Shown piece after piece: positions 2,257 through 49,123 of a DNA stretch of 50,564 nucleotides (the first letter of the stretch is position 1; each line of letters starts with the position of its first letter). A program made the position numbers and the translations under genes. The stretch is taken from sequence record MF093736. One strand, written 5' to 3'. Origin of the DNA: Shigella phage vB_SsoS-ISF002. The notes beneath the pieces were generated by a model. It searched no databases, was not told the origin of the DNA, and saw only the letters and a list, made by a program, of their open reading frames with translations.

Positions 2257-2433
2257 TTAATCTAGCTCAATAAATTCCAGGTAATGACCGTTCAGAGGGG
2301 CTTGGATTGTTGAACCTCTACCATCGTAAATCTCAAACAATCCACCTCCGAAATCATAACCAACACTATAGATCTGATTTACGCGGAATGGAAGCGTTTT
2401 GGAATCATTTCGGATGCACTTAACTCGTTTCAT
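2257..2433 (-). CDS. hypothetical small protein (58 aa; not in the supplied ORF track)
   Basis: Hand translation MKRVKCIRNDSKTLPFRVNQIYSVGYDFGGGLFEIYDGRGSTIQAPLNGHYLEFIELD*; RBS agaggg before the ATG; a box-like element and inverted repeat lie upstream. Confidence 0.3.
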   Translation of the reverse strand: MKRVKCIRNDSKTLPFRVNQIYSVGYDFGGGLFEIYDGRGSTIQAPLNGHYLEFIELD

Positions 2434-14203: not shown

Positions 14204-14434
14204 ATGAAAAAGTTAATCACCATTATTGCTGCGGCATTCATCCTGACTGGTTGTGCTCAGAATCTTAAAAATGGCGACTGCGTTACTTACGCGTACGGCT
14301 CTTGCATGATGCGATTCGTTGATGGTAAAAAGGTTCCGGCTGGCGAAATTGACATGCGATTCAAAGGTCTGTCATCCGACGACGATCAGGGCAACTTTAG
14401 CGGCAAGGTATCAATCAAAACTAAAGAGTGGTAA
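14204..14434 (+). CDS. small outer-membrane lipoprotein, candidate superinfection-exclusion protein (Cor/Llp-like)
   Basis: Signal peptide with lipobox MKKLITIIAAAFILTGC; 76 aa; immediately upstream of a candidate receptor-binding protein. Confidence 0.5.
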   Translation: MKKLITIIAAAFILTGCAQNLKNGDCVTYAYGSCMMRFVDGKKVPAGEIDMRFKGLSSDDDQGNFSGKVSIKTKEW

Positions 14435-39199: not shown

Positions 39200-39401
39200 T
39201 CGTTTTAATAGTGATGCAAAAATAATTTTTTAAGCACGTCACCACTCGCGCTGAATCGACTTGTGGGAGCCTTAAAATTTCGTGGGCCAATTGCACTGCC
39301 GACACCTCAGATTTGTAGTAGTGTGCGATTCTGGAGGTATTTGGGCGCATTCCTTCCACTGCGTCACGCGCTGCATCTTCTGCTGTCATGATAGTAGCCA
39401 T
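39183..39401 (-). CDS. hypothetical protein (72 aa)
   Basis: ORF with ATG start. Confidence 0.4.
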   Translation of the reverse strand: MATIMTAEDAARDAVEGMRPNTSRIAHYYKSEVSAVQLAHEILRLPQVDSARVVTCLKNYFCITIKTNSTNC

Positions 39402-39549
39402 AAAACCCCCTTAAGAGATAATGTCAGGACCAGGAGGCAGAATAGCAACTCCTGAAATGATGGCGGCTCGTTATTCCAGTTAGAAAAGTCTGGCATAGTG
39501 TTTTCTCCAAAAGAAAGGGGAACCGCTCAGAGTCGATTCCCCGTTAAAA

Positions 39550-40188
39550 TTACATGATGAACATCAGCGAAATCGAAGCGACCAGGAGAACAAGAGCGAT
39601 AGCTAGGCCAGACAAGTCTGCTTTCTCTTCAAACTTCATTGCTGGCTTGCGGTCAACATTAATAGGCTTGACGTTGCTAATCTTGCTGGTGTTGATCTTG
39701 CCATTGACGCGGGAGGTGCGCTTGCGCTTCTTGCCGAACGTTGCGAACTTAGTGCCTCCACTGTTCCAACGAAGACCTTCGCCATTATGCGTTACGGTAG
39801 CGATGCGGTGACGGCCCGTGTCGTCAGTAAGCGCTACAGTGTGCTTTGCGTGCTCAGTAGGAACGTCGTAGATTTTTCCAACAGTAAATTTTTTGGTGTT
39901 ATCGCTGATACATTCAAATTTCATAAATTTTACCTCTTTATTATGCAGTTGATTGATTGCTTCGATTACGTCTCTAAATTTAACACCATCCACGATTCGA
40001 TGGAAGATATATTTTGAACTACCGCAATACGGCAGGAAAATTTCCTGGTACTCGTGACGACGGATGATGTTAACGTTGCTACCGTGCTCATCCACGACAA
40101 CGAAGCTGTCGTCATTGACGTGAGCGCCTTCGTAGATTTTTCCCCACTTAAAGCCCGATCCGTTACTTGATACGCATTCAAATTTCAT
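39550..40188 (-). CDS. membrane-anchored protein with an internally duplicated N-terminal domain
   Basis: Two repeats beginning MKFECVSSNGSGFKWGKIYEG and MKFECISDNTKKFTVGKIYDV; basic linker; C-terminal helix LSGLAIALVLLVASISLMFIM. Confidence 0.5.
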   Translation of the reverse strand: MKFECVSSNGSGFKWGKIYEGAHVNDDSFVVVDEHGSNVNIIRRHEYQEIFLPYCGSSKYIFHRIVDGVKFRDVIEAINQLHNKEVKFMKFECISDNTKKFTVGKIYDVPTEHAKHTVALTDDTGRHRIATVTHNGEGLRWNSGGTKFATFGKKRKRTSRVNGKINTSKISNVKPINVDRKPAMKFEEKADLSGLAIALVLLVASISLMFIM

Positions 40189-40472
40189 GGTCTAACCTTC
40201 CTATAAGGCTTGATTGATAACATCACGTATTGCGTGAAGTCGCATTCCTGATCGTCATACCCGCGATTGATGTATGGAGTCACGTCTGTAACATCGGATA
40301 CCCTGGCGTGAACTTCCCACCCGGTAAACTCACCGCGATCGAACTCTCGTAGCTCCAAGATATCGCCAATCTGGAAGTTGCGGTCATTGATGCGGAACTC
40401 TGCCGTTTTGGTTCCGTTCATTACTCCAATGAAATGTACCGGGTTAATTTTTAACTTATGACTCTTGCTCAT
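40185..40472 (-). CDS. hypothetical protein (95 aa), possible PUA/ASCH-like fold
   Basis: Weak resemblance only; start overlaps the downstream gene. Confidence 0.35.
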   Translation of the reverse strand: MSKSHKLKINPVHFIGVMNGTKTAEFRINDRNFQIGDILELREFDRGEFTGWEVHARVSDVTDVTPYINRGYDDQECDFTQYVMLSIKPYRKVRP

Positions 40473-40535
40473 GATGCCTCACTGATTGGTTGCCATTCTT
40501 CAATAAGGCCACTATATCAAATGGCCTTGCGGAAG

Positions 40536-40554
40536 GTTTAGCAATTCGTGCTAT
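40536..40554 (-). promoter_or_regulatory. conserved intergenic box
   Basis: Plus strand gtttagcaattcgtgctat; contains the TAG stop of a small ORF. Confidence 0.5.
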
Positions 40555-41262: not shown

Positions 41263-41281
41263 TTTAACAATTCGTGCTTAG
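41263..41281 (-). promoter_or_regulatory. conserved intergenic box (variant)
   Basis: Plus strand ttttaacaattcgtgctta. Confidence 0.45.
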
Positions 41282-41766
41282 TAAACCAACTCGCACTCAA
41301 TATCGAACGGCTCGGCGTTGCAGTGGAAGAAGCAAAGTGCCTCTTTATTCATCCCGCCGATAAATCCAACGGCTCGCAACTGCTCATCGTTAACGTATGC
41401 CAGGTTGCTAGTAATTCTTTCAAAGTCAACGATAACCGGGAACGTGCGATTCTCATACCCCGAGCGCATCGGGTAGCCGCCATTACTGAGAAGTCGAACC
41501 TTGCGCGGCTTAGGATTTGCTTGGACTTCCCATTCGAAGAAGAACATCGTTCCGTCATTCTCGTTAAAGTCAGCCGGACCAAATACATGGCTAACCGAAA
41601 GTCCATAGTCCAGATCGTACACGCCAGCTTTAACCAGATCGTCAACCTTAACGCGGTAGCCTCTAGTGCTGGAATCACACTTCACCGCATCAACCACGAT
41701 AGGGTCAGCTTCCAGGTCGCGAGTAAAGCCTTTGTAACCGCCAGTGCACAGTAATTTAATTTTCAT
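41278..41766 (-). CDS. hypothetical protein (162 aa)
   Basis: ORF preceded by a box unit and the leader catcgacaacgaa. Confidence 0.45.
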   Translation of the reverse strand: MKIKLLCTGGYKGFTRDLEADPIVVDAVKCDSSTRGYRVKVDDLVKAGVYDLDYGLSVSHVFGPADFNENDGTMFFFEWEVQANPKPRKVRLLSNGGYPMRSGYENRTFPVIVDFERITSNLAYVNDEQLRAVGFIGGMNKEALCFFHCNAEPFDIECELVY

Positions 41767-43331: not shown

Positions 43332-43526
43332 TTAAGCCTCTGCAAAGTAAGTGTTAAAGCCTTTGAGTTTGTAGTCGCTACCAACTCGCACCACGTTCCA
43401 TGTCAGACCCGAGTGATACGCAACCATATCCTCAAGGTCGATCGTGATTTCGGTTCCTTTCTTGAACAGACCCTTCTCGTGAGTTGAGTCGCGCTGAACA
43501 ACCACTACGTCAATTTGCGTTTCCAT
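43332..43526 (-). CDS. hypothetical protein (64 aa)
   Basis: ORF preceded by a box unit, a TGGTATAGT extended -10 and the leader catcgacaacgaa. Confidence 0.45.
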   Translation of the reverse strand: METQIDVVVVQRDSTHEKGLFKKGTEITIDLEDMVAYHSGLTWNVVRVGSDYKLKGFNTYFAEA

Positions 43527-44605: not shown

Positions 44606-45217
44606 GGCTTGCAGGTCGATTTTAAGTGTGGTTAATCGTGTTAATCGTGTTAATCGCTTTCCCCATATAAATATGAGCCGATAAAACTACTGTATATATA
44701 AACATGAATACAATAATCAGAGCATCCAACGATTAACATAGTAGACACGCTATACAACCATATTACAGATAATAGTATCTATATATATAAATAAAAAAAA
44801 TACTTATATATTATATATATACATATAGATATATGTATATTATAAGGCGTAATTTGGTGTAATTTTGTCTACTATTGAGATTCAGGCAAATTGTAGACAA
44901 CTGTTAACACACGGTCAAGTGTAACCGTAATCGATAGCACGTTTTGCTAAAAATGGAGATAACCACCAGGCGAACCGGGTAACACCAGATCCTCCCTCTC
45001 ACAATCATTGCATTCTAAGCAACAAATAAACCAACTGTTGCACACCGTGCAATAATCACGTTTCATCATTCGTAATCAATAACAATCAAGGTTATTACAC
45101 CTATTCCAGTATTGATGGAATAATGAGCAATTATTGGAATAGCATTTTTTGCTAACGACTCGGTCGGGTAGGTCGGGTATAGTCCGGCCCATAAACCAAT
45201 CAGAAGAGGAAGCAACA
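44606..45217. promoter_or_regulatory. AT-rich divergent control region between the two arms (candidate origin, packaging or early-promoter hub)
   Basis: 612 bp non-coding; tatatata tracts; 3 tandem GTTAATCGT 9-mers at 44631..44657; boxes at 44934 and 45138; CAACTGTT elements at 44897 and 45034. Confidence 0.5.
44631..44657. repeat. three tandem 9-bp repeats (gttaatcgt, gttaatcgt, gttaatcgc)
   Basis: Direct reading. Confidence 0.9.
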
Positions 45218-48706: not shown

Positions 48707-49123
48707 ATGAAATCCATCAAACTGAAATGCACTTACGCAGATAAAATCACAGGATTTGAAGTAAACAACCTATACAAGGGTCGTGAGCGCTATGATGGCA
48801 CTCGCGAAGTAAAATTAAAATGCGGCAAGTATTTAAAACTTGAAAAGCATGATGAATTACAGATTCACGGATCTGATGAAATCTTCTTCGCGAAGTTCAC
48901 TGAGTTGAAAACAAAGACGCTCAAGTGTACCGGGCTTGACCATCGCAACCCAATGAAAAAATCATTCAAAGTTGGCAAGCGTTACCAGGTTGAAAGCGGT
49001 CGCGCTCTCGGTGGCGTAGCTGGTTACATCTTTGATGAAGATGGTTGTCGCTGGACCTTATTTCGCGAAGAGGTTGGTTTTAGTATCGCAGACGGCACAA
49101 CCTTTGAGGCCAAATACTTATAA
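48707..49123 (+). CDS. hypothetical protein (138 aa)
   Basis: RBS within the accaatcaggag leader. Confidence 0.45.
   Translation: MKSIKLKCTYADKITGFEVNNLYKGRERYDGTREVKLKCGKYLKLEKHDELQIHGSDEIFFAKFTELKTKTLKCTGLDHRNPMKKSFKVGKRYQVESGRALGGVAGYIFDEDGCRWTLFREEVGFSIADGTTFEAKYL

Follow-up and report, generated by a model that had tools for sequence, protein, structure and literature searches.

What kind of protein is encoded by the minus-strand ORF at 39550..40188 of Shigella phage vB_SsoS-ISF002 (MF093736), how did it arise, and what might it do during infection? The stretch analyzed, hereafter the window, is the complete 50,564-nt genome of this T1-like phage (Tunavirus, Drexlerviridae), in which the ORF sits within a long run of small leftward genes. 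DNA comparison of the 1.1 kb around the ORF gave 96% identity to Shigella phage ISF001 and 89-93% identity to dozens of T1-like phages of Escherichia and Shigella. An intact ORF is present in 30 or more distinct orthologues, and the 44 close homologues of its 212-aa product (57-94% identity) come, every one, from T1-like phages. The profile of PHROG 10580, a family of unknown function, was matched end to end (E 3e-137, residues 1-212 on profile positions 1-212). The ISF001 counterpart, ISF001 gp54, is annotated 'hypothetical protein', and T1 ORF68 is labelled 'hypothetical' in all records examined. Two deposited copies stand out, that of ISF001 (L001 / P0012), which bears many singleton substitutions, and that of phage ADB-2 (L015), which is frameshifted inside the second domain; both probably reflect sequencing errors in the deposited genomes and not biology.

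Database searches placed the protein in no characterized family. NCBIfam returned no match for the 212-aa protein and Pfam only sub-threshold ones (DUF7244, DUF6501 and others). A PDB sequence search with the family profile yielded nothing relevant, Gp54 of phage Bas11 surfacing by fold alone, and a BFVD fold search returned uncharacterised phage proteins only. A word-index search with the second domain alone gave a single, uninformative candidate, and a literature search turned up no work on the function of T1 ORF68 or of orthologous proteins. The family had thus been catalogued but not characterised, the T1 record adding a note on a transmembrane domain. What we add is the demonstration of a whole-domain duplication, a predicted Gp54-type fold in a protein unrelated to Gp54 in sequence, a membrane-tethered tandem architecture that appears to be the Tunavirus variant of a single-barrel core, and comparative evidence for an internal start.

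The first-pass annotation, made from the letters of the DNA, had noticed that two consecutive domains begin almost identically. These stretches (MKFEC...GKIY) lie at residues 1-21 and 89-109 and share 12 of 21 residues. The similarity survived a proper pairwise alignment: residues 1-88 against residues 89-212 gave a local score of 65, compared with a mean of 24.2 (sd 4.0) and a maximum of 47 for shuffles, none of 2000 of which reached 65. Aligning orthologue profiles of the two halves with hhalign gave 97% probability in local mode (E 8.9e-11, 40 columns) and 95% in global mode (E 5.5e-9, 63 columns). Because the match extends over 63 columns, the similarity covers the entire ~64-aa barrel described below and not just the first 20 residues or the first strand. 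The homologous segments are residues 1-66 (hereafter D1) and 89-152 (D2), so the domains measure about 65 aa and not the roughly 90 aa originally proposed; the repeat unit is 88 codons, the fold itself occupies ~64-66 aa, and residues 67-88 of the first unit form, in the AlphaFold2 model, a helix without counterpart after D2.

The duplication is also visible in the DNA. A repeat reported earlier at about 39906..39925 and 40170..40188 resolves into an exact pair of 14-mers in register, and there is a second such pair (Table 1). Each of the two ATGs is also preceded by the 9-mer ATCAATCAA, at a distance of 21 nt (40210-40218) in one case and 24 nt (39949-39957) in the other, and this indicates that the duplicated unit took in leader as well as coding sequence. 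We propose that a ~264-nt unit made up of leader, start codon and barrel was duplicated in tandem in the Tunavirus lineage, giving the present gene, in which the first copy would read in frame through the old leader of the second. Elsewhere in the same cluster, a 162-aa protein (41278..41766, minus strand; PHROG 9595) matches the 74-aa PHROG 13367 in two separate stretches, which suggests another internally duplicated small-domain protein.

Table 1. Features of the ORF and its surroundings, in positions of the window.
Feature	Position	Strand	Remarks
Whole ORF, D1-helix-D2-linker-TM, 212 aa	39550..40188	-	orthologue of ISF001 gp54; PHROG 10580; T1 ORF68 family
D1, first predicted six-stranded β-barrel, residues 1-66	39991..40188	-	AlphaFold2; Tunavirus-specific copy; dN/dS 0.16
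Codons 67-88, predicted inter-domain helix and putative leader/ribosome-binding region of internal start	39925..39990	-	contains ATCAATCAA (39949-39957) and SD GAGGT (39932-39936)
Internal ATG, Met89	39922..39924	-	probable start of 124-aa short isoform; only start in T1, IME347
D2, second predicted six-stranded β-barrel, conserved core, residues 89-152	39733..39924	-	
Linker, residues 153-190	39619..39732	-	predicted disordered (pLDDT <50); dN/dS 0.35
Predicted C-terminal transmembrane tail anchor, residues 191-212	39553..39618	-	ends at stop codon
Exact 14-nt DNA repeat ATGAAATTTGAATG	40175..40188 and 39911-39924	-	264 nt apart, in register
Second exact 14-mer pair GGAAAAATCTACGA	40130-40143 and 39866-39879	-	264 nt apart (88 codons), in register
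Upstream ASCH/DUF3850 gene	40185..40472	-	stop overlaps ORF start as ATGA; missing from T1 along with D1
Repeated promoter-like element, GCACGAATTGCTAAA plus hairpin carrying TGATATAGT	40500..40551	-	heads the unit of ASCH gene and ORF; 15-mer copy at 40537-40551
Intrinsic terminator, GGGGAATCG..CGGTTCCCC plus T run	39517..39542	-	strong; 8 nt after stop codon

Structure prediction with AlphaFold2 returned two six-stranded barrels, a disordered linker and a terminal helix. The full-length model was built from 34 orthologues, and its best run reached a pLDDT of 78.8, the other four only 64-44. For residues 89-212 we used a more diverse alignment that included relatives of 30-44% identity, and all five runs then gave a pLDDT of 69-71, with ~90 in the barrel. 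The fold thus rests on AlphaFold with shallow alignments and, for the full-length model, on one confident run of five. Both models have six β-strands per domain at nearly matching relative positions and a long β1-β2 loop. In D1 the strands span residues 2-8, 18-25, 28-32, 38-45, 50-53 and 60-66 (pLDDT ~90), and a helix follows at 71-82; disorder is predicted for residues 153-191, and residues 192-211 form the terminal helix.

D1 and D2 are thereby predicted to adopt the rare barrel of Gp54 from Escherichia phage Bas11 (PDB 9AXB; PF25180, 'Phage antiviral trigger protein Gp54'). Gp54 is a six-stranded barrel with a prominent β1-β2 loop and a very rare topology (PMC11578894), and the predicted models contain such a barrel and loop, as in crystal structure 9AXB. 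Gp54 binds CapRel directly, and the authors of that work suggest that it may inhibit another defence (PMC11578894). The likeness is one of fold only: the PF25180 model had no match at an E of 1 or better in the 212-aa protein, and hhalign of D1 or D2 against a 33-sequence Gp54 alignment gave a probability of 1% or less. Gp54 is moreover a soluble single domain, whereas the 212-aa protein combines a pair of barrels with a linker and a membrane anchor. The window also contains a genuine Gp54(Bas11) homologue, a 64-aa protein at 43332..43526 (minus strand; E 5e-12 to PDB 9axb, E 5e-36 to PF25180), which shares the early cluster of the ORF and lies 3 kb upstream of it.

A different set of sub-threshold matches joins the first ~40 residues of the domains to DUF7244, DUF6501 and several small PHROGs. 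The match of DUF7244 (PF23896, SH3 clan) to D1 reached 15.9 bits (E 0.014), below the 27-bit gathering threshold, and covered residues 12-39 only. DUF7244 is likewise a small phage β-barrel with a similar N-terminal signature, MK..KC...G..Y, and it gives weak sub-threshold matches both to D1 and to relatives of D2; however, it is a shorter, five-strand type of domain that adjoins lysis genes and has no membrane anchor. It has been described as the 'standalone SH3' of the Drexlerviridae lysis module (PMC13164509). In the window, a 58-aa DUF7244 protein (2257..2433, minus strand; E 8.5e-29) lies next to the holin, endolysin and spanin genes. A 138-aa protein at 48707..49123 (plus strand; PHROG 2684) apparently comprises two tandem small barrels with the signature K.KC...G..Y; it gave two weak domain matches to the D1+D2 profile (E 1.3e-5 among the proteins of the window) and a weak match to DUF7244.

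The C-terminal part of the protein agrees with the basic linker and membrane anchor that had been described there. Residues 153-190 carry 13 K/R against 3 D/E. This basicity is found in Tunavirus, and the linkers of distant relatives are near neutral; we accordingly rejected the linker as a conserved nucleic-acid-binding feature, and its charge probably serves no function of its own. Over the last 19 residues the Kyte-Doolittle hydropathy averages 2.68; this segment coincides with the modelled terminal helix, and the C-terminus is hydrophobic in every relative, distant ones included. An N-terminal hydrophobic segment or signal peptide is absent, and the predicted transmembrane segment consists of the last 20 residues and is flanked by K/R on its N-terminal side. 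A single transmembrane segment within the last ~30 residues, with no N-terminal signal or transmembrane segment, is what defines the tail-anchored class by sequence. The T1 record describes ORF68 as having a 'single transmembrane domain N-in C-out'. We infer that the product is a tail-anchored inner-membrane protein whose hydrophilic part would face the cytoplasm. Just past the terminator of the ORF begins a 36-aa ORF (39386..39496, minus strand) with one hydrophobic segment, the counterpart of T1 ORF67 ('N-out C-in'), and counterparts with a similar N-terminus (M.D.N.W.E.P) follow the single-barrel gene in two distant relatives (L017 and L018); this small protein could be a membrane partner of the 212-aa protein.

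Not all relatives have both barrels. T1 ORF68 (CPTT1_010, AAP49932) is a protein of 124 aa that corresponds to residues 89-212 only, with about 82% identity, and starts at the equivalent of Met89; T1 lacks D1 as well as the ASCH gene. Similarly, gp15 of phage IME347 (Badaguanvirus) is a 126-aa protein with a single barrel and a C-terminal transmembrane segment that starts at the Met89 equivalent. Both belong with the ORF in PHROG 10580 and have in common with it the C-terminal transmembrane segment, a terminator after the gene and the neighbourhood, but they lack D1 and have a promoter-like element directly before the gene. An exhaustive profile search of 1.84e9 proteins gave eight matches at an E of 0.001 or better. 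One is the representative of the family itself, and four are proteins with a single barrel and a C-terminal transmembrane segment (30-44% identity); the others are two D1 fragments with frameshifts and a 270-aa protein that has four shorter repeats. In the contigs examined, the single-barrel relatives occupy a common syntenic slot, with an ASCH-type or other small gene on one side and, on the other, genes of 72 aa and ~147 aa that precede polynucleotide kinase; no stand-alone D1-like gene was found upstream of them.

As the single barrel with its anchor is the widespread form, D1 is best seen as a Tunavirus addition, and on the sequences compared D2-linker-TM is the core of the protein. The ancestor would have been an older single-barrel gene of this kind, the form that survives in T1, IME347 and more distant Drexlerviridae. 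The state in T1 is best read as a secondary deletion, since close relatives of T1 all have D1. The junction in T1 (L002 2470-2550 compared with window 39925-40552) looks as if the leader ahead of ASCH had crossed over with the sequence preceding Met89; CAAYCAA motifs occur in both, and the arrangement suggests that ASCH and D1 were lost through recombination between similar leaders. We also considered whether the 3' end of D1 is a copy of the intergenic promoter element upstream of ASCH. A MAFFT alignment was suggestive, but the local score of 17 compared poorly with shuffles (13.7 ± 2.2, with 272 of 3000 as high), and we rejected this idea.

Selection has acted on the two barrels with different strength. 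In a comparison of 12 orthologous genes (the window and L004-L014), dN/dS was 0.16 for D1, 0.04 for D2, 0.35 for the linker and 0.32 for the transmembrane segment, at a synonymous diversity of 0.36-0.41. Constraint is thus very strong on D2 and weaker but still purifying on D1 (pS 0.36). Across the D2 family 14 positions are invariant (M1, K2, C5, T10, K12, F13, T14, Y19, D34, D35, G37, R40, G48 and R52). In the hhalign register D1 keeps seven of them (M, K, C, F, Y, D and G) and has replaced the other seven, mostly loop residues (T10, K12, T14, D35, which became E, R40, G48 and R52). Having kept the structural residues and lost half of the D2-invariant ones, D1 looks like an accessory or modulating copy. 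D2 would be the functional core, and its invariant polar residues, which in the model fall in the β1-β2 loop and the β3-β4 turn, most likely form a putative binding site.

The ORF appears to belong to a short transcription unit. A 15-mer, GCACGAATTGCTAAA, occurs 14 times in the window compared with 0.22 expected, almost always just past a stop codon, on the minus strand at 2489, 4145, 4477, 9551, 12594, 30740, 37367, 38662, 39182, 40537, 41263 and 42845 and on the plus strand at 44937 and 48112. About 22 nt past it lies a TGnTATAGT-like element in the loop or 3' arm of a short GC hairpin, followed by the A/C-rich leader CAACCAATCAGAGG and, ~38-40 nt further, the next ATG. This cassette looks like the repeated promoter of the phage, with a 22-nt spacing and a hairpin around the -10 that are unusual for sigma-70 promoters. 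In the T1 record a rho-independent terminator is annotated at the place equivalent to that of the terminator after the ORF, and IME347 and L017 have a similar hairpin sequence. Given the promoter-like element and the terminator, the ORF closes a short unit, which in T1 consists of this gene alone. Early expression is plausible from position, that is, from the leftward small-gene cluster, the promoter-like element and the terminator.

Several features mark Met89 as a probable translation start inside the ORF. The SD sequence GAGGT 7 nt before it has a duplex energy of -7.1 kcal/mol, compared with -7.0 at the annotated start and 0 to -2.9 kcal/mol at the other in-frame ATG, GTG and TTG codons, and the local fold of the 50 nt around Met89 is weak (-2.6 kcal/mol against a mean of -7.9 ± 4.0). 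Every orthologue conserves GAGGT, the 7-nt spacer and the ATG, and T1, which has no other start for this gene, carries them unchanged. The leader pattern C[AC]A[CT]CA..[AG]AGG..ATG occurs 11 times in the window, compared with 1.5 expected from shuffles; six of these lie at called gene starts, two more at probable true starts that our crude ORF caller had placed upstream, and Met89 is among the remaining three.

Variation among the 12 related genomes points to the same site. Synonymous diversity falls to 0.065 in codons 67-88, the lowest 22-codon window of the gene, compared with 0.36-0.41 elsewhere; none of 20000 random sets of 22 codons was as low, and diversity recovers abruptly at codon 89. 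Across an 8-kb alignment such troughs fall on intergenic regions and gene starts (for example 40568-40509, 39228-39169, 37348-37289 and, at the 3' end of ASCH ahead of Met1, 40248-40189), and none of those at real gene boundaries in the 8 kb is deeper than the one at 39909-40010 (pi 0.026). On the simplest reading, the old ribosome-binding region of the D2 gene still works within the fused ORF, and products of 212 aa and 124 aa are both probably made; the short one would be equivalent to T1 ORF68. Phage T7 offers a parallel in gene 4A/4B, an in-frame dual-start gene that gives a full-length and an N-terminally shortened protein. There, one ORF contains a further ATG with a ribosome-binding site, as ours does at Met89, and the products share their C-terminal part. 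Our short form would, however, drop one copy of a duplicated domain and not a distinct functional domain, and its pairing with a long form is inferred only. By eye, we also noted a possible internal sigma-70 promoter in codons 60-75, with TGTTAAATT as an extended -10, that the promoter scanner did not report.

Taken as a package, the reading we favor, with a probability of roughly 0.55, is that the gene encodes a tail-anchored protein facing the cytoplasm, made in two isoforms, in which D2 would serve as a tethered binding module and D1 as an accessory. Two homologous Gp54(Bas11)-type barrels would be separated by ~40 disordered residues from a single C-terminal transmembrane helix. At an early stage of infection, the protein would recruit a partner, from the host or the phage, to the inner face of the membrane or retain it there. 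Our confidence is higher than this figure for the architecture and lower for the activity. The earlier verdict that no function can be read from the sequence was nevertheless too pessimistic, as a fold, a conserved core and a probable internal start are all readable.

The alternative that we take most seriously, though we hold it unlikely, is that only the 212-aa protein is made. The internal SD, Met89 and the conserved nucleotides ahead of it would then play no part in translation and would instead be left over from the duplication or mark a recombination junction between modules. Since the frame is open across the junction in every full-length orthologue, there is no doubt that the fusion product is encoded. 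Module boundaries, where recombination is expected, likewise show diversity troughs in this phage group, and the end-point of the T1 deletion falls within the stretch of codons 67-88; recombination or recent homogenisation at a module junction could therefore produce the trough instead of translation initiation. A relic, however, would decay at synonymous sites, and these are about five-fold less variable here than in the flanks. Met89 also has all the features of the real starts of this phage, and its equivalent is the sole start in T1 and IME347. The annotation of the short gene alone in those two phages, together with a junction that behaves like a gene boundary, could be taken to mean that D1 is untranslated or that the ORF is two wrongly joined genes, the real one being D2-linker-TM. 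To this we give very little credence: D1 is under clear purifying selection, is predicted to fold confidently, and is preceded by a separate SD, its ATG overlapping the stop of the ASCH gene as ATGA; in no orthologue does a stop codon separate it from D2.

Two further alternatives concern what the protein does. It could, in the manner of Gp54, counter a host defence or trigger one; its barrels would bind a host immunity protein that the anchor then sequesters. The rare fold in common with CapRel-binding Gp54(Bas11) is consistent with such a role, as is the faster evolution of D1 than of D2, which is what a conflict surface would produce. D2 itself, however, is almost frozen, unlike an arms-race interface, and hhalign found no sequence link to Gp54, so we regard this role as improbable. 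Slightly more doubtful still is a role in superinfection exclusion, which the first-pass annotation had raised alongside host takeover and in which an early inner-membrane protein would stop the genome injection of later phages. A membrane-anchored product encoded among clustered small, early-type genes would suit this role; the protein is partly dispensable, T1 lacking D1, and a small conserved membrane ORF follows it. But nearly the whole protein would be cytoplasmic, with nothing exposed to the periplasm, and it has no similarity to known exclusion proteins in Pfam, PHROGs or NCBIfam. The phage moreover already carries, in the tail-fibre region, a lipoprotein ORF (14204..14434) that we take to be the Cor exclusion gene. 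The role of Cor in T1 has been described (PMC13164509).

The tethered, two-isoform binding protein that we favor may also be part of a broader pattern. On a more speculative view, which we consider rather unlikely as a whole, the Gp54 barrel is a recurrent, diversified effector scaffold of T1-like phages, present in at least three copies in this genome (Gp54, D1 and D2); the membrane-tethered D2 would capture a host factor, and the isoforms would tune the activity, with D1 as a modulator or decoy. If so, the gene would provide a handle on what Gp54-type proteins natively do. The fold of Gp54(Bas11), which was described recently as a trigger of the CapRel defence, was reported as almost unique, and a second, sequence-unrelated set of such barrels in the same phage family suggests that the fold is a general phage module. 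The barrels described here are duplicated, membrane-anchored, syntenically conserved and strongly constrained, which would make them an experimentally tractable relative. The synonymous-site trough before Met89 is, in addition, a clean example of a probable internal start detectable from comparative data alone. The family itself forms a natural series, with the short form only in T1, the long and probably also the short form in most Tunavirus phages, and a single barrel in other genera, and so offers ready-made variants for studying the role of the extra domain and of the anchor.
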